Source of the DNA: a virus
Direction: 5' to 3' (one strand)
IMG/VR virus record: IMGVR_UViG_3300031715_000001
Span: 42,689 to 106,688 of that record
DNA length: 64,000 nucleotides
In this document: one piece after another, positions 2,034 through 34,028 of the stretch
How positions within the stretch are numbered: position 1 is the first letter of the stretch
Layout: each line of letters opens with the position of its first letter
Program-made: the position numbers and the translations under genes
Notes under the pieces: generated by a model
Seen by the model: the letters and a program-made list of their open reading frames with translations, nothing else
The model's database searches: none
What the model was told of the DNA's origin: nothing

Positions 2034-2873
2034 TCAAGTTCCCTGACAAGGTACTGCGCTCGAAGTAAATGTACCTGTTGAGTCTACACAAACATACCGT
2101 AGGCCGCTGCCGCTCTTCAGGGTTGGCATAACAATCTCCCCTGGTTGGCTGCCGCTCGCGCCAGTTTTTAGCGTACCTGGAATGCTCACATTTCCACCTG
2201 AATCCAGAACTACGCAATTCGGACAGGAGATCACGCCGGTTGCAGGGTTGTAGACAAGCGGCGCGAGAACGCCATTAATGACCAATGGACCAATCGCTGG
2301 AACGGGCGCTGGCTGTGCGGTTCCGGATATCTCGACGCGGAGCCCGGTTGGATTGGGATTGGGCGTATAGTTCGTGACCACAAAATCAAGCGTGTTGATT
2401 CCGGCGATAAATCCGGTCGAGATGGGGAAAGGCGTAAGGGAAAGAAAGGAATCGGAACTGGGGCCAACCGCTGTACCGTTGATCTTTATGATGATAGGGG
2501 GATCGTCGGAAGCAACCTTCACCGTAAGGGCCGCCGTGCTGATATTCAATCCGGTGAGGTCGAAAGTGGTTCGGTAGGTATATGCGCCCGCTAGGTTGCC
2601 AGATCCAGCATCCGCTCTAGGCCCAATCCATTTGGAATTTGGCCCGCTAGCCAGCCAAAGATTCGTTGCAATCGGCCAAGCGTTATTGACCACATATGCG
2701 TTCGGGCCTGGGTAGGCAGGGTCCGCGCTGGTGATCAACTTGTAATGCGCGTCCACGCTAGCGTCGGATGCCAGGACGCCAGGGGAGACCGTGCCGGTAT
2801 TAAAAATTGGAATCGCGACTGGGGTTTGGGCAAGAATGGAACAGGTTATGCCGAGGTATATTAGCATTCTCAT
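2034..2873 (-). CDS. secreted beta-sandwich (carbohydrate-binding-like) protein, last gene of the tail cluster
   Basis: ATG at 2873 overlaps the upstream TGA; signal peptide MRMLIYLGITCSILAQ; SKWIGP...YTYRTTFDLTG...NTLDFVVTN jelly-roll-like segment. Confidence 0.6.
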   Translation of the reverse strand: MRMLIYLGITCSILAQTPVAIPIFNTGTVSPGVLASDASVDAHYKLITSADPAYPGPNAYVVNNAWPIATNLWLASGPNSKWIGPRADAGSGNLAGAYTYRTTFDLTGLNISTAALTVKVASDDPPIIIKINGTAVGPSSDSFLSLTPFPISTGFIAGINTLDFVVTNYTPNPNPTGLRVEISGTAQPAPVPAIGPLVINGVLAPLVYNPATGVISCPNCVVLDSGGNVSIPGTLKTGASGSQPGEIVMPTLKSGSGLRYVCVDSTGTFTSSAVPCQGT

Positions 2874-5584
2874 CTGACAGTTACCCCAGAAATCGTCGCG
2901 CCAGAGAATGTAGTGTTGCCAGTCGGCGTAGGCAAAGAGAAGCCTGTCGCGCCGCAATAAACAGCCAGGTTGTCTGGTGCTCCGGAATCACTGTGGCCGC
3001 ACTGCAATGTTCCGTCTGGCGAGATGGAAGTTTGGCTGACGTAGTAATCCGTGCCTGTATAGTCACCAATGACACTCACGCCGCGAGTTTTGAGTAATTC
3101 AACTACGTTTATCGGGGTGGCCGAAGTGCCAGTAGCCATCGGCGAAAAGTCCAGAATCATCATGTCCGACTGATTCTGGTAAGGACCGTTTACGCCACTA
3201 GTTGCCATCGTAACGTCGGGGGTGAATATTCCGGTCCCGGCAGTCCAGGTACCCCCCAACGTCCCTCCACAATTGAAGGTCGAGCCCCACTGAGCCGTAG
3301 CGCCTGAAACCGTCCCGGCGTTGTCGGTCAGCGTTAGGCTCGTGCCGCTATTTACCGTCGCCACTTTACAGAACTTTCCTGAACCCAGAGAACAGGTGGT
3401 GACGCCAGCGATCTGAATGTAGTGGCCGGCCAGCGCACTATCAAAGGCAGGACCGCTCGTTGCGGTTAGCGCCGTACCGCCCGTTACGTTCACGCTGCCG
3501 GTCAGATTGGTAAGTCCAGCGATGGTGCATTTATTATTAACGTCCAACAGTCCAGTCACGCCAGAGAGAGTGATCGGGCTTCCGACGATCTTATTGCCGT
3601 TTGATACTGGCAGGTTTCCATTTATATAGTTAGCATCAACGGTGAGTGAGCCTGGGGTGCCGGTTGTCAGACTTCGAATGGCGTAGCCGTATACTGCGGG
3701 GGCGCTGTTACCATTGTCAACAGTTATGATTGACAATGGAGCCGTCAAAGCTCCACCGACATGAAAGTCCTGAAGTTGGTGGTCTATCGGGAAGAGGAAG
3801 TATGCGCCACCGCCTGCCTGCACGGGCGTGAACATACTGACTGCGCCGCCCGCATCTGGATCAGAAGCGGTAACGACGCTGTATGCAGCCAAGTCTACGC
3901 CTTGAACAAAAAGCTCATGCTTGACGCCGCCTATGGAAACCTCAACCCAGCCCGCGTGCCCAGCGGAATTACAATTGGCATTCGCACAATCGGTCGCTGC
4001 ATTGGAAATTTGTTTGAATAGAAATCCTTTATCGCTTGATGATGGCCTTACCGGCATCGGACCTTCATCTACAATGGTGTGCCCCGGCCCTAGCCAACTC
4101 AAGAGTTCGTCAGCGGCGCTTGTAGCGCTCGTTGCTTCCAGAATGCACCACATCTTACCACTAACACCGGAGAATCCCTGACTGCACTGAAGAATTCCTC
4201 TGATATTCGTTTGGCTGCTACTACTAGGATTAGGATTCCCTGGGCTGATCGTTGTGAGCGAGCCATAATTGTACGTAACATAAGTCCCATTCGTTACGTC
4301 TGCGATTAGGGCTATTGGGCTATTACCTGTAACATGTACGTTGTTGGTGAGTGGGAAATACTTCCCACCAACCACCATTGTGTCGTTTGAAGAGGCGAGA
4401 CTATATAAGGCCGTAAAGGAGGGTCCGGTCGTTCCCACCAACAAACCTATATCCGCGTCGGAGCCGCCCGGAATCAGGACCCGATGAATTGTGGCGGAAT
4501 GCGTAGTATAGAGATAGGCATCCAAGCCTGGATTGAACGCTGTATAACTTGGGTCCCAGAGCATGTCTCCATCAGTTAGGGTTGTGACAGTCAACACATC
4601 ACCAGTACCATTCGTCTTGGTGATGTAAGTCGTACCACCTGGAAGGGTCTCTGTTATTACGTAATTGCCTGTCGTGCTGACGGAAGACTGAGGACCATCC
4701 GTTAGGATCACTCGAATGGCATTCGATGGGGTAACGCGATAACGAACACTCCCTGCTCCTGGGCCAAAGTTCGGGTCGGTGTCGGTGGTGGACGTACCGG
4801 GAGTCGTCGGCAGGAAACGAGTTCCACCAGGCACGGCGTTTGTAATAGTGCAAAGTTCCTCGTGTTGATAAATAGCACTCCCAACAGCACAGTTTACAGC
4901 AGCCCCGTTAGGAGTCTTCCAATTTTGAACGGACGGTGCAAAGGTCTGATAGTTGATTGTTTCCGTACAGCCCGAAGGGCACGAGCCGCTTTGAGTGATG
5001 GTGATAGTGGACTGCGGGCAGTTTGTTCCTACTGTTGAGCATGCCGGGAAACCTGTCAGATTCGATCCGGTCCAGTAAACGTAGACCTGATTTGGGGCAG
5101 TTGTCGTTGACACCGTGGCTGTCCCAGAGCATGAAGCCGCTGTTCCAGGGCTTGCTATAGCCGTGGTTGGACTGGAAGTATAGCCGCCGCCTCCATTGGT
5201 GATGACAAGTGCTGTCCCTCCGGCGATTGTATTTGTGCCGGTCAACGCCACTGTGGCCGCGCCGAGTTCCCCACCTCCGTTGAACAGATTCAGGACACAG
5301 GTCTGGCTGACTGAACCGACTGCCGTGATGCCGCTTGTATAAGTCCCAGCCGTTAGTGTCGAAGTGACCTGGGTGTGCATGATAGCGCACAGAGAACCAC
5401 CGGTCGTGATAGTATTCGCGCATCCCGATACCGTGATCGTGCCCGAACCGCCAGTGAGGGTGATTGCGCGCGGGTAGTCCTGCGCATAGGCCGAGACGCC
5501 TTGGAAGGTCAGCGTAGTAGGGCTGATCTGTCCCAACAATGCGGAAGAAATGGCCAGCGCCAATGCTAAAAAGCCGAATTTCAT
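2870..5584 (-). CDS. large Thr/Gly/Ser-rich tail appendage or adhesin-like protein with signal peptide
   Basis: 904-aa ORF translationally coupled to its neighbours; signal peptide ending LLGQ; beta-rich composition. Confidence 0.6.
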   Translation of the reverse strand: MKFGFLALALAISSALLGQISPTTLTFQGVSAYAQDYPRAITLTGGSGTITVSGCANTITTGGSLCAIMHTQVTSTLTAGTYTSGITAVGSVSQTCVLNLFNGGGELGAATVALTGTNTIAGGTALVITNGGGGYTSSPTTAIASPGTAASCSGTATVSTTTAPNQVYVYWTGSNLTGFPACSTVGTNCPQSTITITQSGSCPSGCTETINYQTFAPSVQNWKTPNGAAVNCAVGSAIYQHEELCTITNAVPGGTRFLPTTPGTSTTDTDPNFGPGAGSVRYRVTPSNAIRVILTDGPQSSVSTTGNYVITETLPGGTTYITKTNGTGDVLTVTTLTDGDMLWDPSYTAFNPGLDAYLYTTHSATIHRVLIPGGSDADIGLLVGTTGPSFTALYSLASSNDTMVVGGKYFPLTNNVHVTGNSPIALIADVTNGTYVTYNYGSLTTISPGNPNPSSSSQTNIRGILQCSQGFSGVSGKMWCILEATSATSAADELLSWLGPGHTIVDEGPMPVRPSSSDKGFLFKQISNAATDCANANCNSAGHAGWVEVSIGGVKHELFVQGVDLAAYSVVTASDPDAGGAVSMFTPVQAGGGAYFLFPIDHQLQDFHVGGALTAPLSIITVDNGNSAPAVYGYAIRSLTTGTPGSLTVDANYINGNLPVSNGNKIVGSPITLSGVTGLLDVNNKCTIAGLTNLTGSVNVTGGTALTATSGPAFDSALAGHYIQIAGVTTCSLGSGKFCKVATVNSGTSLTLTDNAGTVSGATAQWGSTFNCGGTLGGTWTAGTGIFTPDVTMATSGVNGPYQNQSDMMILDFSPMATGTSATPINVVELLKTRGVSVIGDYTGTDYYVSQTSISPDGTLQCGHSDSGAPDNLAVYCGATGFSLPTPTGNTTFSGATISGVTVR

Positions 5585-7128
5585 CGCAGCGTTACTCCAG
5601 GAGTTATATTCATGCCACTTCCTAGAATGGAAGGCAAGATCGTAGTTCCACCGCTGAACTCATAAGCCCCCGCATCCCACACACCGGTTGCCGGTCGAGA
5701 AGTGGTGGAACGAGACACGGCCTTATGATTAACCGAATCGTAGCTGGTGTAAGTTGAATCGCTCGTGCATAAACTGGCAAAGACGCCCGAGCACGAACTA
5801 GTGAAGTCTGTCCCGACCCCAACTGTTGAGTTGGTCGAAGCTACCGGTGAGTAGGCATAGGTTTCTGAAGCCGTATACTGATCGAAGCGAGGGGAACTGT
5901 CAGAGTCAGCCTGTGCCGCCGTCTGTTGCACGTTGCCACCATCGTTGATGCAACTTCCGTTCACGAAATTGCATATTGTTGGCGAGATGCAGTGAAAATT
6001 GCCGTAATGCGCCGTGCCCGTTCCCGCAGACCCGTTTTGCATACACGCTCCCGTGGCTGTTACGACGGTATTGTTGTAATAATAGAATGTGCCGTTCGTT
6101 GAAGGACCACCGATGCTAAAGCCTTTATCGGAGTTCACCTCGTTATCGTAAAGAACATTATTGAAGGCATAGGCAACGTAGGATGGGTTGGCTGAATTGG
6201 CCAACATGAAAATGGTGGTCCCGCCGCTACACACCGAGTGACGGACGACGTTGTTGGAAACTTGGATTACCGTACCGCTAAAGACCCCCTGCGGATAAAT
6301 CATGTTGCAGTGATCGCCCGTGGTCGAGAGGTTGTTATATTCAACTAGATTTCCGTCGATCACGTTGAAGATGCCGTTCATCCCGTCATACACGTAACGC
6401 ACGATGTTGCCATGTACGATGTTGCCGTGCAAGATTCCACCGAAACAGTAGTTGCCTCCTATGTCTGATGAGTCCGATCCGTCGATGACGTTGTACTGAA
6501 AAAGATTGCCGGTTCCTTCGCCGCCGAAGTTGCTCCAGTTCATGGTCATGGCGAATGGATCGTTTGTGCCGGAACCGCAAGAGCCACCCGTACGTGACCA
6601 GCCATGAATGTAAAGATTTTCTACCGTAATACCGTTGCCGTAAGTAGCGACGATGTTTGAACTAGACCCATCGTACTTATAGCCGGTGACCTCGATGTTG
6701 TCGAGAGTCAGGTAATTCCCCGCAAGCCAGACCACGTTACCGAGAGTGCTAGAGTTATTCCCGCAATTAGTCGCTTGGCAACTCCAAATAGGCCGCGTCC
6801 AGGATGCTCCCGTGAACCACGTTTGATCCACGCCGATGTAGATCGTGGACCCGCTGGAACCGGAGTAGGTAAGGTTCACGCCGCCTAAGTCCGTCGAACC
6901 CCACGTATCCCCTCCGTAGAGGATAAAGCGATCCCCAGGATTAGGGGAATATCCAGCAGCGTTAGATGTAGCGCCAGCCATTCCTGGAATATGCGCCCAC
7001 GGAGTTGCTTTCGATTGGGCAGTTGTAGAAGAACGAGTATCGAGACCGTTTGTTTTTGAGATATAAAATGTCGCCCCAGACAATGGAAGGCATAGCAGTG
7101 CTAAGAGAGCAAATCTCCTGTAGGTCAT
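5581..7128 (-). CDS. right-handed beta-helix (pectate-lyase-like, putative depolymerase) protein with signal peptide
   Basis: ATFYIS...PWAHIPG N-terminal motif; Asn-ladder repeats (YNVIDG, GNIVRY, NNVVRH, NNTVVT); C-terminal WDAGAYEF motif. Confidence 0.7.
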   Translation of the reverse strand: MTYRRFALLALLCLPLSGATFYISKTNGLDTRSSTTAQSKATPWAHIPGMAGATSNAAGYSPNPGDRFILYGGDTWGSTDLGGVNLTYSGSSGSTIYIGVDQTWFTGASWTRPIWSCQATNCGNNSSTLGNVVWLAGNYLTLDNIEVTGYKYDGSSSNIVATYGNGITVENLYIHGWSRTGGSCGSGTNDPFAMTMNWSNFGGEGTGNLFQYNVIDGSDSSDIGGNYCFGGILHGNIVHGNIVRYVYDGMNGIFNVIDGNLVEYNNLSTTGDHCNMIYPQGVFSGTVIQVSNNVVRHSVCSGGTTIFMLANSANPSYVAYAFNNVLYDNEVNSDKGFSIGGPSTNGTFYYYNNTVVTATGACMQNGSAGTGTAHYGNFHCISPTICNFVNGSCINDGGNVQQTAAQADSDSSPRFDQYTASETYAYSPVASTNSTVGVGTDFTSSCSGVFASLCTSDSTYTSYDSVNHKAVSRSTTSRPATGVWDAGAYEFSGGTTILPSILGSGMNITPGVTLR

Positions 7129-9252
7129 TTAATTAAAACACGCATTCGCTGCATAGAATGTATCCCCACTTGTTCCATCAGTGACGACAGGCGTTTTAGA
7201 ACCAGCCGTAGTCGTAATCAACGCAACAGACCCGTCCTGCGTGTTGCCATAAATTGTGTGGGCATAACTGAACGAATTGCCGGATGCGGGGGCCGTCGTT
7301 AAAGATCCGTTGACGCCAAACCCAGCCAAACAGAAATCATTCGTTCCTGTCGTAGTTACCGATGGTCCTGTGCAAGTAGTCCCGCTACAAGTCCCCGCAT
7401 TTGTCGCTCCGCCCGAGCCGTCCTGGGACCAACTACTCCCAGAACCCTTGGCAACTTGATAGATCGTAAGCTCCGCGTTTGTTACAGCGCCGCTAAATAC
7501 GATGTGAATTTGTGATGCTGCGGTACTGGGAGCACTCACAAACCAAATAGAAGGCGTCATGTGGCCCGTGGCAGCGGTCGCCCCGGCAGCTTTTGACATG
7601 GTGCCACCCGTAATGCAAGAACCCCCGGAAGACAAACAGACAGAGGATGTCGAAATCGCCGCGCTTCCGCTTTGCTGCGCTATCTCAACCGCCATGAGAT
7701 TGTTCTGAATAGAGGCTTTAGTCAGCGCGAAATTTAGGGATGATCCACTAGTAGCTTGATCCGACTCGCCATCTATGATACCGATGCCACCAGACCCCCA
7801 AAATCCAACAACGTCTCCTGTCCACCCTGTACTCCCCGATGCCGACAGTGTGAATGTGAATGGTGGCCCAATGGTTCCTGCCGATGGGATGCAATGCCCA
7901 AATGGATTATTCTGCCAAAGCGGTTGTGGTCCATCTATAGGCTCACCGCCGAAAGATCCAGCATCGAATTGACAGTTCGATCCCGTCCCGGAGGGAGCCG
8001 TCAACGCAATAGCGGTGTTCGTTCCCTCCGACCCAACGGCCTCTGAAATTCCCACGGATGGCAGAGGACTCCAGGTAGGCCCAGATGAAACCGCATCAAA
8101 GGCTAACGATGTAGCACCGCTGCTCCCGCTTGAGAAAGAAGCGCGACCTGCCGTAACGCTAGTGGGCGCATTGACGTACTCTCTCAACACAAACGTACAA
8201 TCTTGGGACGTAGCAACGGTGAAGGTCAGGTCTCCTGGGGATGTCGCCGCCGCGTTGGCAAGATAATACTCATTGAGTCCGCCGACCGAGCCGTTAAATG
8301 TGGTAGTCCAGGTACGGCCCGCATCCGTAATCGCGGTCGGCCCAGCGCTGATACAAGAATTGGTGTCGGTAAGTAAGCTCCCGCTGGCGTTGGGAAATTG
8401 CACCTTAAAGGATGTGGCCGATGAGCTATTCGGTTCTGAATAACCCAACATGCGGCTGACATATACTCCACTTGGGGCTGTACCGGCAGACGCAGATTTG
8501 AATGCAATGAGAAATTCCGTATAACTGGAAGATGTTCCCAGCGTTATGGTGGGGTTCTGTACCCCTGCCGAAGTAGCGACAGTCCAACCTACAGCACAAT
8601 CGTCCTGTAGGTTACTAGGCCCTTGCGTCCATCCACCCGGAAAGGTGATAGATGCTTGGACTTGGCTACTGGCCGGACAAACCTGAGCCAGAACAAGATC
8701 GTTTGCCGCCGTGGTGGTTATGCTGGCGCAATTGGCGGACGTTGTTGCAGCGTGACTACAACTTGTGTCCACATCCACCGGGCTAGAGGTTGCAATGTTA
8801 TAAAACTCCCAGACTTGGGCGCTGGCGTTGCTGACGGCTGTTGTTCCGAACGTAACGTTTGTCTTGATAGCCCCAGCGGTCACATTTGGCGCATAGGCAA
8901 TACCATTCCACAGGTTAGTCCCGCTTGGGTCTTGTGATCCTGAGAGCACGGTAAAAGAATTGCTCTTATCGTCTGCTGCCGTCGCCGTTACCGAAGTACT
9001 GGCATGGGCATACTGAAACGGAACTACCCTGAGGTTCCCGCTGAGCGCCGGGTATGACGCCTGGAGACAATAGGAAAAGGTAGGACAGGCGGTCTGGCCT
9101 GTAGGGTTACTACCCACGCTTGTGCCGGTCGTGCTATTGCTTGCGCTTGCGCTGACGAAGCCGGGAGTGGCCGGTACAACAGAATTGAAAACTGTCGGAA
9201 CAAATTGACCAAAACAAGCGCCTGCTGCTAACAATACAGATAACACTCGCAT
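7129..9252 (-). CDS. tail-associated protein with duplicated beta-sandwich modules and signal peptide
   Basis: Signal peptide MRVLSVLLAAGACFGQ; internal repeat (SITTTAANDLVLA / SVTTTGTNDFCLA). Confidence 0.55.
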   Translation of the reverse strand: MRVLSVLLAAGACFGQFVPTVFNSVVPATPGFVSASASNSTTGTSVGSNPTGQTACPTFSYCLQASYPALSGNLRVVPFQYAHASTSVTATAADDKSNSFTVLSGSQDPSGTNLWNGIAYAPNVTAGAIKTNVTFGTTAVSNASAQVWEFYNIATSSPVDVDTSCSHAATTSANCASITTTAANDLVLAQVCPASSQVQASITFPGGWTQGPSNLQDDCAVGWTVATSAGVQNPTITLGTSSSYTEFLIAFKSASAGTAPSGVYVSRMLGYSEPNSSSATSFKVQFPNASGSLLTDTNSCISAGPTAITDAGRTWTTTFNGSVGGLNEYYLANAAATSPGDLTFTVATSQDCTFVLREYVNAPTSVTAGRASFSSGSSGATSLAFDAVSSGPTWSPLPSVGISEAVGSEGTNTAIALTAPSGTGSNCQFDAGSFGGEPIDGPQPLWQNNPFGHCIPSAGTIGPPFTFTLSASGSTGWTGDVVGFWGSGGIGIIDGESDQATSGSSLNFALTKASIQNNLMAVEIAQQSGSAAISTSSVCLSSGGSCITGGTMSKAAGATAATGHMTPSIWFVSAPSTAASQIHIVFSGAVTNAELTIYQVAKGSGSSWSQDGSGGATNAGTCSGTTCTGPSVTTTGTNDFCLAGFGVNGSLTTAPASGNSFSYAHTIYGNTQDGSVALITTTAGSKTPVVTDGTSGDTFYAANACFN

Positions 9253-9254
9253 GA

Positions 9255-12200
9255 CTAGTTCGCCTGCACCACTAACAGCCTCGGAAAGGTTACATCGGCT
9301 GAGTAAAAGTTGATATTACCTGTCGCTGTATCGGTAGCCCGCCCGACCTGTACAATCATCAATCCCCCTGCAATACAACCGCTCATTTGTGTAGCACCGA
9401 ATTGAACATTCGAGCCGTTATAGAAGCCGTTCGCTACCGCGCTAGCTCCGAATGTGACGGTACTTGATGACTGCGCCGCTGAAAAGGTAGCGTCATCCGA
9501 CACCGTGCCATTTCCGGCAGTAGGGCACGATACCTTCACCTGTGGGATTACGGTATGCCCGTTAGTTGTATCGGAAGCAGCCGAGAAATAAAAGCGGACG
9601 TATGGATTGGTCGCCGTATCCCAATCTTCAGGAATAGTTAGTGAGAACTGAGCAAACGTGCTGGAGGTGTCGGTAATAGTAACGAATCCGCCCTGGTTGT
9701 TTGTTCCTGCCCGGCAGCCAACGGTGCCTCCCGATCCAATTGACCAACCCGCTCCAGCCGTAGTGTTATTGCAATTAGCTGCCGGGATCTGAAGGCGTTC
9801 GGGGAAGTCTATATAGGTTGGTTTGGTGCTAGCACCCTGAGAAACAAATACTTGCCCGCTAGTCCCCGCAACAGAGGACTGAAAAGCACCGGTTGATGTA
9901 GTACCGCCTAAGATAGGAGCGAAAGCCGTAACAGACGTGTCGCCAGTGCCGCCCCCTGAGACAGTAATCGTTGGTAGATCTCCGGTTGCAATAGCCCTGA
10001 ATGCTGGAGCGCCTGCAGTGGCGAACAATGCATGAGTCGTTGTCGTGTCAGCCGAGATGGTAGCCTCAGCTTGCGAGCCTTGACCGATCACGACAGCGTT
10101 GTTGGTCAATGCTGCCGCACTGGTTACCTGGGTGGCCGGGTTTAAAGAAAACTGAGCGTACGTGATGGCACTTCCAGAAGATCCGATGGCCGTCACCTGG
10201 GACGTGAGAAGCCAAGAAGTGGTCCCGTTGACGGTGCCGGATTGAACAGGAATGCTTCCGGTATTGTTGACGTCGGACGGCGTATCGTAGTCTAAAGCTC
10301 GCGTGAACACGGTGCTTATGCCCGTAGTCCCCACCACGGTCACTGTGTATACGCCATTGTAAGCTGCCGTGGATAGATTCTTTAGTAGGTAACGCTGCCC
10401 GGTTCCACTAACAGTCACGCCGTCAATGGTCGTCGTCCCGGTTGCTGTCAGGGTATACGTGTCACCGATACCACCCCCGACCTGCACGTACGTACCTGGG
10501 ATATTAGCGGTAGTAGCTGCAAGTACGGCAACCGCTGGATTGACGGCTGCGATGGCATTCGATACGGCGGTGGTAACGAAAGCGTCAGTGGCGAGGTCGG
10601 TCGAATTATCACCGGCTGTCTGGGTGGGAGCGGTGGGGGTACCGGTCAGCGCAGGACTAGCGGAAAGAACAGCCGTGGTGCCCGTTCCGGTGGTGGTGGT
10701 GGCAATGAGTTGCTTACTGCTGTTGGTTCCTAGCAAGGTGGCTGATGTTGGAATTGCAGCGCCTTCGACCTGCACCACCGTAGCAGCCACAGATCCAGAA
10801 CCGGACGCCGTCACATCGCCAGTTAATGCGCTGATACCTCCGCCCGAGGCAGCAGCCCCCGCAGGATTCATGTCAATCAGCGGAAGAGTGGTGGAGAGAG
10901 TAGCCGAAATACCGTCTCCGAACATACCGGCAGGCAGCGTTCCGGCAACCGCCATGACGATACCAACAGTGGAACCTTGCCCGGACGTACATGAACTCGT
11001 TCCACCAGAATCCGTCACTTGGCCAGCCGTTGAGCCCGCGCAAACGGTATGGTTTAACGTCACCGCTGAGGAGGCGTTGATCGGGATCAAGCTCCCAATC
11101 TTAGCCACATGCACAGTATTCGTAAGGACTTTTTCAGCAGCGCCTAGCCAATTCGTAGGACTAGCAGGGCAATCAGCGACAGTGTTAGCTGTGGCCGCAA
11201 CAGGGCATTCCAAATTGAACTGTGTCGCTGTTGTACCTTTATCGTATGGCTGTAAGAGTATCAACGGCCCCTGCAAACCTTGTGTTGTTCCGGTGGACTC
11301 TCCGCCTTGCAACTGCAAGCTCCCCGCTACCGAAGCCGCATTCGCCACAGCGTTGTTTCCGCCGCGCACAAGCGTGTAACCACCGACCGAAGAAGAACCG
11401 CCACCAGCCTGGCTATCCGCACCACGAAAGACACCACCTGGGAGCGTGCCATTCAGGGCTGTATCTAATCCACCATCATAAACCCCTGGATTTCCGCTAT
11501 TGTTGTACATGGTGTTTCCGGGAGCCGAAAAATTGCTCGTGGTTAACTGACCCCCGAAACCACCACCCATCGAAATAACGCCGTTCCCTAGATTCACCGT
11601 TGAATAGGCCGAATAAGCATTGGCCCCATTGCCCCAAATCATGGGCTGCGCGTTGGTTGAGTTGATGCCGAAGTTGTCGGTGGCTGTTGCGGTGAAGCCC
11701 GCAGCGGCGGGGATTTTTAAGTTACCGGCGCTTCCATCGAAGATACCTCCTGATCCGAGGGTGATCGTAGTTCCAGAGTAGGTAAGTTGGCTAATTCCGC
11801 CGAACGCGCCCGCGTTATTATATTGAATCTGTGTGCTACTGCCTCCGGGACTTCCGCCTCCGCCGCCCGAGGGAGTAACTGCGTTATAGCAAGGATTGGG
11901 GCTACCTCCGGTCGTGTATTCGATCGCCTGGCCATTGGTTGGGGTAAACCCCGAGCACAGAGGAACTCCGTTAATTCCGGCCACGGTGGTTGCTGGGAAG
12001 GTACCAGAAACATCTCCGGTGAACACGCCCGCATTTACCAGGTCAGCGGCTGGAACCAACCCATAGGTTATTTGCGACACGTTGCTACTGGGAGCGCCGA
12101 CAAGCATGACTCCTGCGGCTGAAGGGCCGGTAGGTGACGCCTGTAAACCGTAACCTGTGAACGTTGCTACATCAGGACCTATAAAACTGAATATATTCGC

Positions 12201-13991: not shown

Positions 13992-14060
13992 GAAGTTGGA
14001 ACCTTAAAGTTGAAATTGGTGGAGAGCGGGGAGCTTTACGCTAGATCTCTAGGGCGCATA

Positions 14061-17000
14061 TTATTTGGCGGTCACTGTCCAGGCCGAGCCATCACAGTAG
14101 GCTTCGACGTGGTTTGATCCCCCGCCGGTGATTGTCGCTCCCCACGTGTTGGTCACTGAGTCGGTAACGGGCGCATGGCGCCCTTCGTTTCCGGATGCAC
14201 AGGTAGCCAGAGCCGAGAATGAATTGGTTTTCGATCCGTAGGACCCGACGTCATCAAGCGACCAAGCCAGCGCTTTGGCGTTGTTCAAAATCTGGTACTG
14301 GCCCGCGCTGGCTACGCGAAAGTATTTTATGGGCGACGTGGCGCCGGTCTCCACATTTTCGAAAATCATCTCGTTGGTGTCGCTGGTTGCGTTGAAGCGG
14401 TAACGAGCCGGTGTCTCGAAGGTGGCGTATTGGGTGGCGGCCGTATAGGCGTTCAACTCAGTCGAATCAACAAGCGGAACTCCAGACGACGCCTGCACTG
14501 GCGCCCTCATGACCAAACGTGTCGGCGGTGTCGATGTATCCAGCCTGATGCTGCGAAAGGTTCCCCCAAATTTCGGATTAATGAAGGAAACCAAGTCGGA
14601 CGAGGTTTGGACCTTGACGTCGCCGCCCAAGCCCGATGCATTATTGCTCCCGAACGTAGTGTTGCCGAACGACACGATGGCGCTGTTATCGATAAGCCCC
14701 GCGAATACGGAGCCGCTGACGGAATTGGAGAAAAAGGAATTGTCTATCTGAACGTTTCGCGCGTTGTGCGTATAGAGCGATGACGTTGAGGCGGTCCCAT
14801 CGACGATCAACTGATCGAAAAACGAGAACATCGATTGCAGCGAATTGGTGTTCTCTATTTGTACGGCGACTGCCCACGCACCATAGATTCTGATCCCAAA
14901 GCCGTAGGTTGCTCCAGCAGCGGCCGCCGTGGTGGCAAGATCATGAAACGCTATCTGCCCGGTTCCCGCCGGCGGATTGATGACAACATTGTAGAAGCTG
15001 TTCTCTCCGGCGCTCCCCGTCTTGTCATGATGAACTGCGTCGCAACTGACATTGGTAATACCCAGATTGCCGAAACCGGATGCCTGCGTGAGGGCGATAT
15101 TGAGGCCGTTACAGCCGCCATAGAGAGATGCATCGGAGACGAAGTCAGGAACTCCGCCCAGGCCGCCGTAACTCGACACCACGACGTCGTCCTTTGTGGT
15201 GCTCTGGTTGTCCACCGTCAACTTGTGGAGTCCGACGCGGTCGCGTCCTATGGGGCCCGGATTTTGACTGTCGCAGGTGAACCGGAAGGCAGGATTCGGA
15301 ATCGTGGCATCGTAGACCAAGACCACACCGCTTCGCGAGGTGCCGACTATTTCCACGAGGTTTAGATAGACCTCTACCCCGGCGTGCATTGTGAAGGTCC
15401 CGTCGGGAATGGTTACCGTGCCGGAGTGGCCGCCGAAGTTGGGATCCACTGGAAGAGCCCACATTGCTTCATCGATGCCGGCGGTTGCGCTCGATATCGT
15501 CCAGGAGCCGGTATGATTATTAGCCGGCACAAAGGTGAGGGTTCCAGTGGAGGCGCCGGACGTGCACGTTCCACCGGTGATGAGCACCGCCTCGGCGGTT
15601 CCCGTCCCGGCCGAAATCCACTTGTAGTCGCGCGCGTTCGTCCCGTTCACCCCTAAAGGACAGGGAGCCATGTTGGCTGTGTTCGTAAGCCCCGCAATGA
15701 GGGTTCCTCCTGGACTTTGGGCTTGAAAGTTGTAATCAGCGGCATTATTGATGGCCAGCGTGCTGAACTGCAGTGTCGGCGTCACGATATTGGGCGCGAC
15801 GCGCAAATAGTTAAGCTGCGCTCCCGTTCCCAGCCCGAGGCCGCCATTTGCGAGCTGTAATATTCCAGTCACATCCGTTGTGAGCCCGACCGGGGAATAA
15901 GCTGGAGGACCGGCCACGTTTCCGTGCAGCAAGGTGGTCGTCGTTCCTAGGGTCGAGAGCGCCGAAGTCCCCTGCGAACCGGCCCCGATGATCAGAGCGT
16001 TCAGCGTCTCCGCCGCGGCGCTCGTTACGCACGTCGGGCAGGCGATCGCGCCCGTAGCCGTGATCGGACCTCCGGTGATTGGACCGGTGGTCGTGATGCT
16101 CGTGACCGTGCCCGTTCCAGCCGTGTTAGCGACCCATTGGACACCGCCTGGTTGGGCGGAATTGGACTCCAGGACGAAGCCGTTGGTGCCCGCAACCGTG
16201 ATCCCGAAGGTTCCGGTGCCGGTCCCGGTGACGATTCCGCCTTTGGCAACCCCGCTCGAATCGAAGCCGGTTCCGCCTTGCGCGGGCGTCACCGCCGCAT
16301 TGGTGGTTAATACCGTGGCGCTGGCGTTCGGGAATGCAAAGGTCTTGAGCGAAGTGGTGGGTCCTGAGACGGCGAAAAAGCCGTTGCCTGATCCACCGCT
16401 CGCGCCCGGCAGAATTCCCGCGACATCGGTGGTCAGAGTAACCGGAAGAAAAGAGCCGGTGCCTCCAGCGTTGCCGTGGTAGACCGTCGTCGTACTTCCA
16501 AGCGTCCCCAGCACCGTCGCGTCGTTTGCACCATTGCCGATCAGCAGTTGTCCCGCAAAGAGTGGGCCGCTCGAGTTGGTAACCGTCCCCGCGCCCGCTA
16601 CGGTCGCCCAGGTTCCATCGCCGCGCCAGAAAGTGATGCTCGACGCTCCCGTGCCGCCGTTCAAGTTTGAAACTGGTAGATTACCGGTCACGCCGCCATT
16701 TCCCGAGGCCGCCAGGTTGATCGCCGCCAGGCGCGCCCCTGCGACTGTTCCGCCCGAGAGATTGTTACCGTTCGTTGCGTCAATGGTCGCCGAAGGCGAA
16801 AAGCCGGTGCCGTTCGTGGTTGTGACGATCGTGGCGCAGCTTCCGGCCGCTTTCTGCACATCTCCGGTAAAAGCGGGAACTTGAGGACAGAGCAGCGAGC
16901 CGCTCAATACGGAAGCGGGCAGGCTTGTGATCCAGGCGGGATTCGAATAGCTTCCCGTCGAGACGATGAGATTCGCCGCCGGAATCGAACTGTCGATGAT

Positions 17001-17738
17001 ATTGCCGCTCGAATCGAAGAACGGAATATCCCCTGTCGAAAAGACACCTGATCCGCTGGTGAGTTTCCCGCTGTTTCCATACAGCGAAGTGATGGGCACG
17101 CCTAGGATCTGATTGGCGTTATTGATTCCGGTTCCTGAAAAGGTCAAGACACTGCTCGATCCGACCGTCAGGGTCTGGCCGGTGTTATTCACTCCGGTCA
17201 GGATGGAGGAAAAGGTGGTGGATCCGCCGCCTCCCCCTCCGCCCGCGCCCGGCGCCCAATAATTGCCGTTCCAGGTGAGCACGTTGCCGATCGAAGCGCC
17301 GGCGTTTGAGATTTGCGCGGGTGCGATGATGCCGGTAGAAGGAGGCGGGCAACCGACTGAGGATTCGACGATGTTGAGCGAGACCGGGGAGGAGGAGACT
17401 GGGACGTACCAGTATCGTGAGCTGGCCTGCCCATTGAGCCGGTATTGGACTTGAAAACAGCCGATCGGCAACATGGCCGCGGTGGGGAACAAAGAGATGT
17501 TGACCGCACCGTTTGTGATCGAGACGGTCTCCGAGCCGGGAAAAATCACCTGCCGCGGATTGGCGTCGTTGGTGTAACGCCCCCACGAAATTACGATCGT
17601 GCCGCTTGGATGCGTATTGTTCGGCCAGGTGATGGTGTCGGAGATCTGGGTCAGCGCGGACTGCCCGAAAACATTGAGTGAAAACGCTAAAGCGATGGTA
17701 AGATACAGAATGAGCCGCGCGACGTTGACGCGCCGCAG
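14061..17738 (-). CDS. tail fibre/tailspike with C-terminal beta-helix region (start uncertain; CTG at 17738 proposed)
   Basis: GNLPVSNLNGGTGASSITFWRGDGTW and GTGTVTSITT fibre motifs; GTVTIPDGTF beta-helix entry motif; signal-like segment RRVNVARLILYLTIALAFSLNVFGQ. Confidence 0.7.
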   Translation of the reverse strand: MRRVNVARLILYLTIALAFSLNVFGQSALTQISDTITWPNNTHPSGTIVISWGRYTNDANPRQVIFPGSETVSITNGAVNISLFPTAAMLPIGCFQVQYRLNGQASSRYWYVPVSSSPVSLNIVESSVGCPPPSTGIIAPAQISNAGASIGNVLTWNGNYWAPGAGGGGGGGSTTFSSILTGVNNTGQTLTVGSSSVLTFSGTGINNANQILGVPITSLYGNSGKLTSGSGVFSTGDIPFFDSSGNIIDSSIPAANLIVSTGSYSNPAWITSLPASVLSGSLLCPQVPAFTGDVQKAAGSCATIVTTTNGTGFSPSATIDATNGNNLSGGTVAGARLAAINLAASGNGGVTGNLPVSNLNGGTGASSITFWRGDGTWATVAGAGTVTNSSGPLFAGQLLIGNGANDATVLGTLGSTTTVYHGNAGGTGSFLPVTLTTDVAGILPGASGGSGNGFFAVSGPTTSLKTFAFPNASATVLTTNAAVTPAQGGTGFDSSGVAKGGIVTGTGTGTFGITVAGTNGFVLESNSAQPGGVQWVANTAGTGTVTSITTTGPITGGPITATGAIACPTCVTSAAAETLNALIIGAGSQGTSALSTLGTTTTLLHGNVAGPPAYSPVGLTTDVTGILQLANGGLGLGTGAQLNYLRVAPNIVTPTLQFSTLAINNAADYNFQAQSPGGTLIAGLTNTANMAPCPLGVNGTNARDYKWISAGTGTAEAVLITGGTCTSGASTGTLTFVPANNHTGSWTISSATAGIDEAMWALPVDPNFGGHSGTVTIPDGTFTMHAGVEVYLNLVEIVGTSRSGVVLVYDATIPNPAFRFTCDSQNPGPIGRDRVGLHKLTVDNQSTTKDDVVVSSYGGLGGVPDFVSDASLYGGCNGLNIALTQASGFGNLGITNVSCDAVHHDKTGSAGENSFYNVVINPPAGTGQIAFHDLATTAAAAGATYGFGIRIYGAWAVAVQIENTNSLQSMFSFFDQLIVDGTASTSSLYTHNARNVQIDNSFFSNSVSGSVFAGLIDNSAIVSFGNTTFGSNNASGLGGDVKVQTSSDLVSFINPKFGGTFRSIRLDTSTPPTRLVMRAPVQASSGVPLVDSTELNAYTAATQYATFETPARYRFNATSDTNEMIFENVETGATSPIKYFRVASAGQYQILNNAKALAWSLDDVGSYGSKTNSFSALATCASGNEGRHAPVTDSVTNTWGATITGGGSNHVEAYCDGSAWTVTAK

Positions 17739-17771
17739 CGGCTCGGCACGAGACCCATAGGAGGGGTCAAC

Positions 17772-18578
17772 ATGCAAACCAATATTACACCTGCGCTCAG
17801 TTGGCACATCCAGGATATTTCCGGGCAGACCTTTGGAGCGCTCATCGTCGAAGAATTTAGTCATGTTGGAAAGAGACATACGACCTACTGGAAATGCCGT
17901 TGCGCATGCGGGGTGGTGAGAACCATCCGTCAGGACCAATTGAAAGCGGGCCAGCCCTGCAAGGCTTGCTATGTGGGGCAGAAGAGGGAACGAGTACTAG
18001 CGAGGATGGAAAAGCGCTGCAGTGTCTGCCATCAGACGCTTCCGCTATGCGGGTTCAATAAGGACAATCAATACACGGGGCGGATCAGTTCCCGCTGCAA
18101 GGCCTGCGCCATAGAAATGCAAATACGACAGAGGGAGAGAATAAAGGTCCTAGCCCTTCAAAGGCAAAAGCGGAGAGCGTCAGAGTCCGCGTTGGAAGAA
18201 AAACTCTGCCCGAAATGCCACAAGACCAAACCGGTTGGAGACTTTTGGAAAACTAAGCAGACCGTTCATGGGCTAACGTCCCGGTGTAAGGAGTGCCTAG
18301 TAGCAGACGATCGCGAACGAAAATTCGGTCTTACTCCAGAAGCGCTGCAGTCTATGTCGAAGTCGCAAGGGAACTGTTGTTATGTCTGTCACAGTCCTTT
18401 TTCCGGCCCTCACACAAGAGCAATAGACCATTGTCATGAGTCTGGATTGGTTCGCGGGCTATTATGCCCACAGTGCAATCTTGGACTCGGGTGTTTTCGT
18501 GACTCGCCTGACCGACTCCGGGCCGCCGCTCTCTATATCGAGAAATGGCTGGAGCGGCGCGCCACCCCTGCGGCGTAA
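17772..18578 (+). CDS. free-standing endonuclease VII-family HNH (putative homing) endonuclease
   Basis: N-terminal DISGQTFGALIV...WKCRCACG domain; CxxC zinc fingers; C-terminal CYVC...IDHCHESGLVRGLLCPQCNLGLG EndoVII motif; GGAGG RBS. Confidence 0.85.
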   Translation: MQTNITPALSWHIQDISGQTFGALIVEEFSHVGKRHTTYWKCRCACGVVRTIRQDQLKAGQPCKACYVGQKRERVLARMEKRCSVCHQTLPLCGFNKDNQYTGRISSRCKACAIEMQIRQRERIKVLALQRQKRRASESALEEKLCPKCHKTKPVGDFWKTKQTVHGLTSRCKECLVADDRERKFGLTPEALQSMSKSQGNCCYVCHSPFSGPHTRAIDHCHESGLVRGLLCPQCNLGLGCFRDSPDRLRAAALYIEKWLERRATPAA

Positions 18579-18620
18579 GCTAAATGCAGGTGTTAGGGAT
18601 GAACCGGGATGATCTTGTAG

Positions 18621-19019
18621 CTATTTCTTCTCGGGCGTAGGGGGCTTATTCCACCACACGTGCGGCGTTACGGGCCGCCCCTCCGGGCCCTTTAGCAACT
18701 TTCCATCCGGGCCGAATCCGCTGACTCCGCATTCCGGGGTCTTTATCTTGTCCTTGGGGACGCCCACCGATTCACAAGCTTTCGCTACCATCGCTTGCTG
18801 ATCAGCGATCACGGGATCGATCTCATTGTGATAGTCGTCGATCTTGTAATTCTTGTTGATCAGATTGATTTGAGAGATCGTGAAGGCTAAGTGATAGGTC
18901 TCTTCGTCGGTGAAATCTCTTCCATTCGATGATTTCTCGGTTTGCTTCGGAACTACTGATTTCGGTTCCTGAGCATAAATAAGTGATGTCAAAAGTGTAA
19001 GTAAAATCAAAAGCTTCAT
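18621..19019 (-). CDS. small secreted protein
   Basis: AAGGA RBS; signal peptide MKLLILLTLLTSLIYAQ. Confidence 0.65.
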   Translation of the reverse strand: MKLLILLTLLTSLIYAQEPKSVVPKQTEKSSNGRDFTDEETYHLAFTISQINLINKNYKIDDYHNEIDPVIADQQAMVAKACESVGVPKDKIKTPECGVSGFGPDGKLLKGPEGRPVTPHVWWNKPPTPEKK

Positions 19020-19035
19020 GCTTTTTCCTTTCGTG

Positions 19036-19347
19036 CGTCTCGTGCGCTCCTGGAACCCGCGCACGTTGGGGATTAGTTATTTCGTATCGTCAGCAGCGCA
19101 TGGAAACTGGTGCTCTGGAAACTCGGCAGGATCGCCGGGATACTCACCACCGCAGTTTTCGCAGTAGGTGACCGTCTCGTACGAGTCGGCCACGTCAGGA
19201 GGCCCACCAGCACGCTGACTCTTCCATTTATGCTCCATCTCGCCAGTCTCCCACGTGCCCGTCGGCATCGAGCGAAGACGGGTCCCCGTACTTATCCGCA
19301 GGATAAGGCCGGGTATCCAGGATGCGAGTGGACGAGGGCACGAAACG
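19036..19347. mobile_element. hairpin-flanked cassette A (left end 19036-19074, right end 19254-19347)
   Basis: Left CGTCT-cgtgcgc-tcctggaaccc-gcgcacg-TTGGGGATT; inverted right end cgtgccc-(75-nt loop)-gggcacg-AAACG; outer inverted repeat cgtgcgtYtcgtgc. Confidence 0.7.
19077..19238 (-). CDS. cassette A cargo, small CxxC protein (53 aa)
   Basis: GGAG RBS; MEHKWKSQ...YCENCGGEY; lies entirely between the two hairpins. Confidence 0.55.
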   Translation of the reverse strand: MEHKWKSQRAGGPPDVADSYETVTYCENCGGEYPGDPAEFPEHQFPCAADDTK

Positions 19348-19367
19348 CACGATAGCCTCAATTCCAT

Positions 19368-21884
19368 TTAACAACCACTTGAGCTAATTAAGAGCCCAAA
19401 TGTGAAATTCATAGAGCAACTTCCATTAACTACTGTCTTGCTGGCTCCCGCACCACTCGGAGTCTGGTATCCGATGTTGGTGAAGAAACCATTCACGCCG
19501 TCCATGGTGGCTTTCACATTTCCTGATGCATCCGTGGCCGCGCATTGCCCGGCTCCGCTCAATCCACCTCGCGAGCCGGCATCGCACCACACCACTAGTT
19601 CGCCGCCAGCGCTATAGCCCGAAAACGAGTAAGGCGCCGTCGCGCTGCTCACCCAATTCCCATAGGCCGCTGTGTAGGTATTTCCGCGGTGATGGTCCGC
19701 GTTGTCGATCACGTTCGCCCCGCCGACCTGGAAGGCTCCCGAGGTGTTCGATACACTCACCGCTCCATTTCCCGTTACCCAAAAAGCGAAATTCGAGTTC
19801 GAGAATGTGAATAAGCCACCTGTGTTGTTGGCCGTCATCTGCAGGAACTGAACACTGTTCGCGGTCCCGATCTGCTGCGGCAACGTTAAAGCTACGGTTG
19901 ACCCGGAGGGTGTAACGGTGATCGCGTTCGGCTGCGCGCCATTTGTGATCGTCAGCGTACCGAGGTTGTTCCAGGCGGTCCCGTTGAAGACTTTTTCCTG
20001 AGCCGCGCCGTTATCCCAGTACATCGCCCCTGCGGCGAAGGTGTCGCCCGTGGTCAAGGTCGGAGTTCCCGAGGAATTTCCGGTCTGGATGTAATGAGCG
20101 GCGCTGAAGCTCAAGGCCGTCATTCCGGCGTCGACCGCTTGGACGGCATCGAACCGGGTATTGGTCCCGAAGGGAAGTACTTTGAATCCGTTGTCTGATT
20201 GCACGTAGCCGCCGGCTACCGTGATGGCTTGATTCGATCCCGTTCCGTGAACGGTCAGCGTATTGATGGAATTCTGCCAGGTCAGGTTGGCGCTACCACC
20301 GAAGATTCCGGCGTTGTTGTATTGCAGGTTCGTATCGGCGCCCGCCGGTGTTCCGCCCCCTCCGCCTCCCCCGGAAAGCGCTACCCAGGCCGTTCCGTTG
20401 TAGTATTTTTCGACACAAGGGCTTACGCTCGTATCGCAGAACATCATGCCCTGGTTCAAATTGTCGCCTGGAGTAATGGGCGCGGATCCGCCGCCCGATC
20501 CGGGAGGACCGCTCGAAAATCCGGTGGTGATGTAATTGGCGGCAGTGAAGCTCGATGCCTTCATTCCGGCGGGAGTGATGATGGAATCGTAGCGCGTGGC
20601 AAGACCGAAGGGAACTGCGAAACCCCAGTCGGAGGTTACTAGGCCGGTTTGGACCTCCAGGGCCGGGATACCGGGACCGCCGGCGTTCCCGACTACATGC
20701 AAAATCTGGTTGGTATTGTCCCACCAGAAATTGGCGCTTCCGGCGAAAGAGCCCGCGCTATTGAACTGAACGTTGGTTGTCGCGCCACCCGGCGAAGTAG
20801 CGCCGCCCGAGGCCAGATTCACCCAGGCTGAGCCGTTATAGAGTTTCTCCTGGCAGGGTGAGCTGCCGGTATCGCAATACATCGTTCCGGCGTGCGGAAA
20901 GCCAGGCTCGCTGCCCGTGGCTGGAGGCGCTCCGGACGAGGCCCCGGTTTCAATGTAGTTCAAAGCTGTGACGCTGGTTGCGAGCACCCCCGTGCCTATT
21001 GCGCTGATCGCGCTGTAGCCGGCGCTGGTTCCGTTCACCAGGAATCCGTAATCGGAGCTCACGGAGGCCTTTGAGACTACGAGGGACGCAGGCGCGAGGC
21101 CCAGGCCCGTAAAGGTCCCGGATATATGCACAACCTGATTGGTGTTGTCCCACCAGAAATTGGCGCTGCCCGCCAGCGCGCCCGCATTGTTGTACTGGAC
21201 GCTGGTCGTCGGGCCGCCGGGCGTCCCCCCTCCGCCGCCTCCACCTCCACCGCCCGGAGCGAATACAAGATTGCCCGCGCCATCGGAGGTCAGCGCGCCC
21301 GCCGCGTCCTGTTGCGGCAGCGTCCAGGCCAGATTCTGCGACATGCCCGGATTGGCCTTGAATATTGCGTAATTCGGGGTTGGATTTCCGTTGCCGACTT
21401 CGAGGGCCTGTCCGGCGATCACATTCGCGCCGGCCGTAAAATTTCCGCCCACGATTACCGGGCCACCTCCGCCTCCATTGCTGTTGCTGATGGTGGCTCC
21501 TGACAATGTCCAGTAATTCCCATTGCCCACTGGGGTTACCGAGGAACCGATCAGATTGTCCCCGCCCGCCCCCACGATGACGGCGCCGGTTGAAGTTGTG
21601 ACGACTAGCTTGTAAGGAACATTGGGAGTCAACCAGATCCCCGAAGGTGTGCGTCCTGATCCATCGAGGATGATGGGATTGGAATTGGCTAACGTTCCCG
21701 CTGAGGTGGTGAAGGTCCCTAATGGCGTGCCTGGACAACTTGAGCCTGCCGCACAGGTGTAAACTCTGCCGTTCGATAGTGGATTGCCGTTGTTATCAAA
21801 GAACTGCTGATTAGCCCAAGGAACAATAAGAGCTTGACCGCATAAATAAAACGGGAGTAAGAGAAGTAGAAGTAGTTTACGCAT
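19368..21884 (-). CDS. tail fibre/spike with virion-attachment N-terminal domain
   Basis: QQFFDNNGNPLSNGRVYT.AAG...NPIILDGSGR motif typical of podovirus fibre attachment domains; three repeats of PGG.TT.VQYNNAG.FAGSANF.W; signal peptide MRKLLLLLLLPFYLCGQ. Confidence 0.8.
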   Translation of the reverse strand: MRKLLLLLLLPFYLCGQALIVPWANQQFFDNNGNPLSNGRVYTCAAGSSCPGTPLGTFTTSAGTLANSNPIILDGSGRTPSGIWLTPNVPYKLVVTTSTGAVIVGAGGDNLIGSSVTPVGNGNYWTLSGATISNSNGGGGGPVIVGGNFTAGANVIAGQALEVGNGNPTPNYAIFKANPGMSQNLAWTLPQQDAAGALTSDGAGNLVFAPGGGGGGGGGGTPGGPTTSVQYNNAGALAGSANFWWDNTNQVVHISGTFTGLGLAPASLVVSKASVSSDYGFLVNGTSAGYSAISAIGTGVLATSVTALNYIETGASSGAPPATGSEPGFPHAGTMYCDTGSSPCQEKLYNGSAWVNLASGGATSPGGATTNVQFNSAGSFAGSANFWWDNTNQILHVVGNAGGPGIPALEVQTGLVTSDWGFAVPFGLATRYDSIITPAGMKASSFTAANYITTGFSSGPPGSGGGSAPITPGDNLNQGMMFCDTSVSPCVEKYYNGTAWVALSGGGGGGGTPAGADTNLQYNNAGIFGGSANLTWQNSINTLTVHGTGSNQAITVAGGYVQSDNGFKVLPFGTNTRFDAVQAVDAGMTALSFSAAHYIQTGNSSGTPTLTTGDTFAAGAMYWDNGAAQEKVFNGTAWNNLGTLTITNGAQPNAITVTPSGSTVALTLPQQIGTANSVQFLQMTANNTGGLFTFSNSNFAFWVTGNGAVSVSNTSGAFQVGGANVIDNADHHRGNTYTAAYGNWVSSATAPYSFSGYSAGGELVVWCDAGSRGGLSGAGQCAATDASGNVKATMDGVNGFFTNIGYQTPSGAGASKTVVNGSCSMNFTFGLLISSSGC

Positions 21885-21952: not shown

Positions 21953-22435
21953 ATGAATGATTTCGCCCGTTCGATCAAAGAGCCGATCCGTTTCTTTTTG
22001 CGATCGGGCCCCGATTCCTGGTTAGCGGCGCTGCTGGCGCATGCCCAGGACGGCAAGCTGGGGTTCTACAGTTGCTGTTGTTTCGTCGGAAGCCGCACTG
22101 CGACGCATGCGCTCCGACCGGCTTATGGGACCAACAACGCCTTTGTAGAGTCTCTCCATTGTGAGTGGCGGTGGTCTTCCCCACACCATTGGCTGCCTAG
22201 TATCGCTGGCTCCGCTGACCATCTAAAGGAGGCTCGTAAGCAGCCTGGAGGAACGGAAGCTGAAATTGCCTTCAGAGATCTTGGTCTTCGCTATGGAGTG
22301 AACGACGATGCACTTCGCCGGCGCGTCGTGATTCCCATGATCAAGGCCGAAATGCGGAGACGCGAGAGAGCAAGCGAATCCCCAACGCACGCGGGCTCCA
22401 GGAGCGTGCGAAACGAGCCAGTATTGACCTGTTAA
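21953..22435 (+). CDS. antisense moron / cassette B cargo, hypothetical protein
   Basis: 160-aa ORF with GAGG RBS filling the gap between two minus-strand virion genes; runs through a hairpin element at its 3' end. Confidence 0.65.
   Translation: MNDFARSIKEPIRFFLRSGPDSWLAALLAHAQDGKLGFYSCCCFVGSRTATHALRPAYGTNNAFVESLHCEWRWSSPHHWLPSIAGSADHLKEARKQPGGTEAEIAFRDLGLRYGVNDDALRRRVVIPMIKAEMRRRERASESPTHAGSRSVRNEPVLTC
22377..22415 (-). repeat. hairpin element (TTGGGGATT type), right end of cassette B
   Basis: AATCCCCAA-cgcacgc-gggctccagga-gcgtgcg-AAACG. Confidence 0.8.
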
Positions 22436-31925: not shown

Positions 31926-31933
31926 TTAGTTTT

Positions 31934-33463: not shown

Positions 33464-33494
33464 TTAAAAAAGAATGAAGGTCTCAGACTTGGAA

Positions 33495-34020: not shown

Positions 34021-34028
34021 GAAGAAAG

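Follow-up and report, generated by a model that had tools for sequence, protein, structure and literature searches.

Predicted export and oxidative folding of the tail-fibre-type proteins of a P22-like phage

Background

In the textbook view the assembly of tailed phages is wholly cytoplasmic, and P22-type tailspikes fold and attach in the cytoplasm without signal peptides. To our knowledge, every tailed phage studied so far follows the rule of cytoplasmic assembly, and periplasmic fibres have not been described for any of them. Phage proteins that use the Sec pathway are known from other contexts, namely the coat proteins pIII and pVIII of the filamentous phages and the signal-anchor-release (SAR) endolysins. 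Here, we describe a block of eight genes (positions 2034-21884) in the last 64 kb of the single 106,688-bp virus record IMGVR_UViG_3300031715_000001, a stretch called the window in the following, whose products, among them proteins of tail-fibre, tailspike and depolymerase type, all begin with Sec-type leaders.

The podovirus tailspikes, represented by those of cyanophage Pam1 (PDB 7EEQ) and Xanthomonas phage PBR31 and by analogy by gp9 of P22, share with the 838-residue protein of this block a homologous N-terminal attachment domain of about 100 residues, a gene position just after the internal/ejection protein genes, and a variable C-terminus. They differ from it in lacking both a leader and a cysteine pair in the domain, and in that folding and attachment take place in the cytoplasm. 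The tail fibre of Legionella phage LME-1 (PDB 9EFK), of which six trimers sit on the short tail in LME-1 itself, is homologous to the 1578-residue protein in one internal segment only. The fibre clusters of the cultured Tunturiibacter phages Tunturi_1 and Tunturi_5 resemble the present block in having leaders, mostly Gln at +1 and even cysteine numbers on annotated fibre, tailspike and structural proteins. However, their proteins have no sequence similarity to those of the phage described here, and Tunturi_5 is a jumbo myovirus. The pIII and pVIII proteins are exported likewise but are assembled by extrusion through the membrane, and the SAR domains of the likewise exported endolysins are weakly hydrophobic and remain uncleaved; neither are appendages of tailed virions.

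Results and discussion

Leaders of the proteins in the fibre region

Leaders and cleavage sites were called by a rule-based scan of all open reading frames (ORFs), which asked for basic residues in the n-region, a core of 7-15 hydrophobic and uncharged residues, and small side chains at -3 and -1. All eight N-termini pointed out in a preliminary description of this DNA are present and have the n-h-c build of Sec-type leaders, their uncharged cores reaching a mean Kyte-Doolittle hydropathy of 2.8-3.3 over 8 residues. Seven of them have Gln at the predicted +1 position, the exception being the 515-residue protein with Ala (Table 1). The same description placed the eight genes in a row. While the eight leaders stand, the row is broken by an endonuclease VII/HNH gene on the opposite strand, and the trait extends beyond the block to at least five other proteins of the window, mostly with Gln at +1, and, in the first 42 kb of the record, to another four proteins, all of them small. 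Altogether, about 17 of the 137 ORFs of the genome carry a leader, about 14 of these 17 with Gln at +1. By our own arithmetic, the chance that all eight proteins in the fibre slot would have one is about 1e-8. SAR domains were considered for these N-termini and rejected, since the cores are rich in Leu, Ile and Phe and are followed by canonical cleavage motifs, instead of being weakly hydrophobic and rich in Gly, Ala and Ser.

True start codons downstream of the hydrophobic segments would have argued against export, but no usable one was found in the four genes examined. The genes of the 838-, 1238- and 904-residue proteins have no ATG, GTG or TTG codon from the leader to residue 60, and the only alternative start in the gene of the 1578-residue protein falls within the hydrophobic core. 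Judged from these codons, translation should not be able to bypass the leaders in the four genes. Homologues also begin at the leader, which is found in 54 of 79 homologues of the 838-residue protein, in most of the close full-length members of the 707 family, and in nearly all relatives of the 1238-residue protein. The leader is retained in kind and not in sequence, while the sequence just behind the predicted cut is conserved.

Table 1. Positions and properties of the features discussed; numbering is that of the window unless marked as that of the record
Feature	Position	Strand	Leader site	Mature Cys	Remarks
Fragment of tRNA-Lys(UUU) gene	record 30617-30766				first ~45 nt of the gene; 12 kb ahead of the window, beside the integrase genes
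Small ORF, paralogue of 21953-22435	record 34130-34591	minus
213-residue leader protein	457-1098	plus	AAA/Q	12	12 Cys in 197 mature residues (6%); no family match
229-residue leader protein	1128-1817	plus	SLG/A	2	no family match
279-residue predicted exported protein	2034..2873	minus	ILA/Q	4	last gene of the block; no family match
904-residue predicted exported protein	2870..5584	minus	LLG/Q	20	stop overlaps next start (ATGA)
515-residue protein	5581..7128	minus	LSG/A	12	depolymerase-like
707-residue protein	7129..9252	minus	CFG/Q	16	all-beta, multidomain; 309 homologues
1578-residue fibre protein	9255..13991	minus	VQA/Q	20
1238-residue fibre/tailspike-type protein	14061..17777 (ORF 14061-17939)	minus	VFG/Q	13	about 1200 residues when mature
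Endonuclease VII/HNH gene	17772-18578	plus			abuts the 5' end of the 1238-residue protein gene
132-residue predicted exported protein	18621..19019	minus	IYA/Q	2	between fibre genes
838-residue fibre/tailspike	19368..21884	minus	LCG/Q	10	16-residue leader, head-binding domain, repeats, variable C-terminus
Small ORF	21953-22435	plus			between the genes of the 838-residue fibre and the giant internal protein
Internal/ejection-type proteins (3151, 509 and 332 residues)	22470-35027	minus	none	0	contrast set
Nozzle/hub-like protein	38148-39902	minus			phrog_578
246-residue phrog_12985 protein	40522-41262	minus			neck region
175- and 267-residue leader proteins	42212-42739 and 42744-43547	minus	Gln at +1 in both	4 each	among head/neck genes
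253-residue phrog_12985 protein	45198-45959	minus			neck region
Leader protein	46582-47007	minus		2
Coat protein	47846-49105	minus			PF11651
Portal protein	55171-57462	minus			PF16510

Cysteine parity and pairing

The number of cysteines in the mature part is even in seven of the eight block proteins, and in 12 of 13 leader proteins of the window if the five outside the block (12, 2, 4, 4, and 2 cysteines) are included. Head and internal proteins contain only 0.28% cysteine, and the three internal proteins none at all in 3992 residues. The parity is also found in homologues. Mature counts are even in all 45 homologues of the 838-residue protein that combine a leader with an X/Q site, whereas the leaderless proteobacterial homologues are of mixed parity. 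Even counts are present in 27 of 31 relatives of the 1238-residue protein, and, in the 707 family, in 25 of the 27 full-length members that are closest (33 of 48 members overall). At the level of alignment columns, Cys44 and Cys50 of the head-binding domain occur together in 27 sequences of the 838 family, singly in none, and are both missing in 15. In the 707 family the pairs (102,119), (165,175) and (192,219) are complete in 22, 13 and 25 sequences and absent in 21, 30 and 18, respectively, and never half-occupied, and two further pairs have one exception each ((300,352): 23 complete, 1 single, 19 absent; (641,705): 19, 1 and 23). Cysteines that are gained and lost together in this way are the pattern expected of structural disulfides. 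The pairing goes with the presence of the leader, which is indirect evidence that the mature proteins would reside in an oxidising compartment. The suggestion of export and disulfide formation made in the preliminary description thus gains strong support from the even counts, the paired columns, the leaders in three families and the absence of downstream start codons, and we regard predicted export and oxidative folding of the leader proteins as well supported.

An alternative would be that the hydrophobic N-termini are not export signals but peptides that are retained for assembly or membrane association, with the cysteines being oxidised only after release of the particles. This would agree with the cytoplasmic assembly of the tailed phages studied to date. 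However, the segments have the canonical n-h-c build with -3/-1 residues and Gln at +1, and small non-structural proteins encoded by this phage have it too. In addition, leaders and paired cysteines co-occur and are both absent from the leaderless homologues and from the fibres of phage Tunturi_3, and it is the sequence after the cut that is conserved and not the leader. Retained peptides, which would leave the link between leaders and cysteine pairs unexplained, are therefore a very unlikely explanation.

Glutamine at the +1 position

An N-terminal Gln can cyclise to pyroglutamate, and cleavage before Gln followed by such a cyclisation would block the N-termini of most of the exported proteins. 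A search for the glutaminyl cyclase of the plant type, PF05096, found none in two metagenome-assembled genomes (MAGs) of Acidobacteria and one in a Bacteroidales MAG. Cyclisation may also be spontaneous or of the M28 type. The fractions of Gln at +1 in samples of Acidobacteria, Bacteroidales, and Bradyrhizobium were too noisy to be informative, the positive control not standing out. As in the phage leaders, Gln follows the signal peptidase I site under the Q-rule of the Bacteroidetes, whose description does not treat the Acidobacteriota (PMC5837995), the group to which the host of this phage probably belongs. Leaders following the Q-rule have been reported in Porphyromonas phages, on unknown proteins only (Matrishin et al. 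2023).

Links to the virion

Residues ~20-115 of the 838-residue protein have homologues at the N-termini of annotated leaderless podovirus tailspikes and fibres (tblastn; E-value 2e-13 to an annotated tail fibre), including those of Xanthomonas phage PBR31, DSL-LC05 and Manatee Spring contigs. The domain also matches the head-binding domain of the tailspike of Pam1 with an E-value of 0.004. The genome has no second copy of this domain, and no candidate for a leaderless fibre is visible elsewhere in it. The leaderless proteobacterial homologues begin directly at the head-binding domain, while here 16 hydrophobic residues precede it. The second link to virions is given by residues 1036-1282 of the 1578-residue protein, which match the tail fibre of LME-1 (orf22 in 9EFK, 18 chains) with an E-value of 6.6e-15. 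A place in the virion is accordingly supported for these two, by the head-binding domain and by homology, respectively, while for the others it is suggested by gene position and modular architecture. Behind the head-binding domain, residues ~217-570 of the 838-residue protein contain three repeats of the type GG..T.VQFN..G.F.GS.NFTW, a motif that is also found in genes on the chromosomes of predatory or episymbiotic bacteria such as Bdellovibrio, Micavibrio and Saccharibacteria.

The 1238-residue protein belongs to a family in which the N-terminal ~630 residues are conserved and the C-terminal parts are swapped, some of them being of the Beta_helix/NosD type. Such a build of an anchor plus a variable tip corresponds to the usual architecture of receptor-binding proteins. 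All relatives begin at a short leader with a Met-Lys/Arg start, and the mature N-terminus Q-S-A-L-T is conserved in them. The copy in the window has no ATG near the leader, the nearest usual start being a TTG at 17777 with an AGGTG 10 nt upstream, and its 13 cysteines are the only odd count among the leader proteins of the window. Because of the odd count and the doubtful start this copy may be impaired, and the adjacent endonuclease VII/HNH gene may have displaced the original start.

It could also be that the proteins are exported but that most or all of them are not parts of the virion, acting instead as free periplasmic or secreted enzymes or binders. They might be depolymerases of exopolysaccharides or capsules, or factors destroying receptors or remodelling the envelope, which would help progeny to escape or block superinfection. 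Two of the remaining proteins fit such a role. The 515-residue protein is predicted to be a right-handed parallel beta-helix (own model in the ESM Atlas with pTM 0.86; TM by query 0.61-0.70) and resembles secreted bacterial beta-helix enzymes, its nearest Atlas clusters being Pel9A-like, DUF1565, and Beta_helix proteins, often from Acidobacteriota; the Pfam sequence models gave no match for it. Residues 77-160 of the 904-residue protein form a domain of ~85 residues shared with host-type cell-envelope lipoproteins of Acidobacteria. The named matches are from Terracidiphilus sp., and every match of the domain begins with a leader of the signal or lipoprotein type; for the whole protein, the Atlas model is poor. 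Six of the eight proteins, moreover, have no proven link to a virion protein. On the other side, the 838-residue protein has the only particle-attachment domain of the genome, the 1578-residue protein matches a tail fibre that has been visualised, and the 1238 family is modular in the way of receptor-binding proteins. If all of these were free proteins, the phage would have no recognisable receptor-binding protein. We therefore consider free exported proteins as a whole rather unlikely, albeit an explanation of some weight, and the beta-helix protein, the 904-residue protein and the small proteins may be free enzymes or helpers even if the larger fibres are part of the particle.

The 132-residue protein is a candidate for a periplasmic helper of fibre assembly. 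It has no match in Pfam or PHROGs, and small leader proteins are also found within the fibre clusters of Tunturi_1 and Tunturi_5, without sequence kinship to it. The AlphaFold2 model of the 707-residue protein (pLDDT 88.6) contains a jelly-roll at residues 486-606 of the type found in carbohydrate-binding modules and tumour necrosis factor, but comparisons with Foldseek and VIA-align gave no clear match to a known fold, only weak ones with Z <= 5.5. In general, Pfam and PHROGs returned essentially nothing for the eight block proteins, and PDB sequence searches nothing for the 1238-, 904- and 707-residue proteins.

Genome context

The genes for portal, coat, nozzle/hub-like and internal proteins form a P22-like structural module on the minus strand. 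The N-terminal region of the 3151-residue internal protein resembles cell-wall hydrolases. Immediately downstream, likewise on the minus strand, come the eight leader-protein genes, and in several cases the stop codon of one overlaps the start of the next. A leader is missing from the endolysin (Amidase_2), which is compatible with holin-dependent lysis. The genome also encodes two tyrosine integrases, and the tRNA-Lys(UUU) fragment that adjoins them probably marks the attachment site; none of four genomes compared with it contained a match. Two small ORFs are paralogues whose common N-terminal region contains a cysteine triplet; one of them is wedged between the genes of the 838-residue fibre and the giant internal protein. 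In the neck region, two paralogous proteins of phrog_12985 are separated by small genes, leader proteins among them.

The integrases and the adjoining tRNA fragment, together with the fact that fibre-like genes on the chromosomes of predatory and episymbiotic bacteria contain the middle repeats of the 838-residue protein, would be consistent with expression from a prophage, the lysogen displaying the proteins as adhesins (lysogenic conversion), as had been proposed as one option in the preliminary description. However, the genes form the end of the late structural operon, in which stop and start codons overlap, and a Pfam search of the block proteins revealed no outer-membrane targeting domain, including no C-terminal sorting domains of the type IX secretion system. 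The same trait is present in Tunturi_1, which is reported to grow lytically and for which no integrase is annotated (PMC11924767). As a general explanation, adhesins of a lysogen are disfavoured and seem very unlikely.

Host and other phages with the trait

The host is probably a member of the Acidobacteriota, as suggested by several leads, none of which is proof. The best match among reference genomes is a contig of an Acidobacteria gp2 MAG, in which the fibre bears a leader too. A Sulfotelmatobacter MAG contains a 65-kb P22-like contig with a head-binding protein and three fibre-type proteins, all with leaders; the cleavage site reads A/Q or G/Q in three of the four and C/Q in the remaining one. 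The Terracidiphilus domain in the 904-residue protein and the Atlas neighbours of the 515-residue protein point to the same phylum. Among 401 genomes of one phylum, no close portal or head-binding domain was found except in the MAG that gave the host lead. Scanning for related loci with the portal alone gave nothing, and with one further single protein only matches to repeats. Among sequencing runs, one from soil contained a small share of the sequence words and no RNA run was listed with them, which is not used as evidence here.

A survey of related phages had been called for, and the combination of features seen in the present block is found again in Tunturi_1, Tunturi_5 and the Sulfotelmatobacter contig. 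In the Tunturiibacter phages, leaders are found on gp12, 13, 14, 16, and 17 of Tunturi_1 and on gp337-342 of Tunturi_5, the latter including three annotated tail fibres. Gln occupies the +1 position in most of these proteins, and the number of cysteines in the mature part is even in the large ones. The paper describing these phages never mentions signal peptides (PMC11924767). Because the trait is shared by the Sulfotelmatobacter contig, Tunturi_1 and Tunturi_5 but not by Tunturi_3, it appears to go with the host group and not with one phage lineage, and not to be obligatory.

A proposed assembly route

The host-recognition proteins of this phage would thus very probably fold in the periplasm and not in the cytoplasm. 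In the route that we propose, Sec preproteins of the fibre, tailspike and depolymerase type would pass the inner membrane and lose their leaders to signal peptidase I, in most cases just ahead of a Gln, after which they would fold in the periplasm with all cysteines in disulfides. This first step is well supported. In the second step, the exported proteins would become the receptor-binding parts of the virion, for which the 838- and 1578-residue proteins provide support and which we infer for the others. Heads with portal, nozzle and internal proteins would in the meantime be assembled without fibres in the cytoplasm. With heads and fibres in different compartments, the head-binding domain of the 838-residue protein could dock only once holin lesions or lysis mix these compartments, so that attachment to the particles would happen during or after lysis. 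Such a late joining is plausible because P22 tailspikes turn spikeless heads into infectious phage in vitro and because the long fibres of T4 attach last. The likely gain would be appendages that are stabilised by disulfides and have a blocked N-terminus, suited to a harsh soil environment.

Several points weigh against this route. Only two of the eight proteins have a sequence link to proven virion fibres, the gene of the 1238-residue protein combines an abnormal start with an odd cysteine count, and the cysteine parity of the 707 family fades in its distant members. The fibres of Tunturi_3, a phage of the same host species as the other Tunturiibacter phages, are leaderless and poor in cysteine, from which it follows that the periplasmic route is not obligatory. 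Joining after lysis must also overcome dilution, and we found neither a precedent in tailed phages nor a report of exported tail fibres in the literature. Taking all this together, we judge it moderately likely that the fibres are exported, fold in the periplasm, serve as receptor-binding parts of the virion, and dock at lysis. That many phages of Acidobacteriota, with short as well as contractile tails, mature their whole receptor-binding apparatus in the periplasm and join it to the particles at lysis is a wider claim, which we put forward tentatively as a serious possibility.

Implications

If true, this would amount to a second, extracytoplasmic assembly line for tailed phages. With exported fibres, lysis would become a step of assembly, and the Sec, signal peptidase and Dsb functions of the host would be dependency factors of the phage. 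Expression, structural work, or engineering of such fibres would need periplasmic conditions, and filters that use signal peptides to remove supposed non-virion proteins from virome data would be wrong for such phages. Since the trait is also present in Tunturiibacter phages that are in culture, experiments on the question are already possible.

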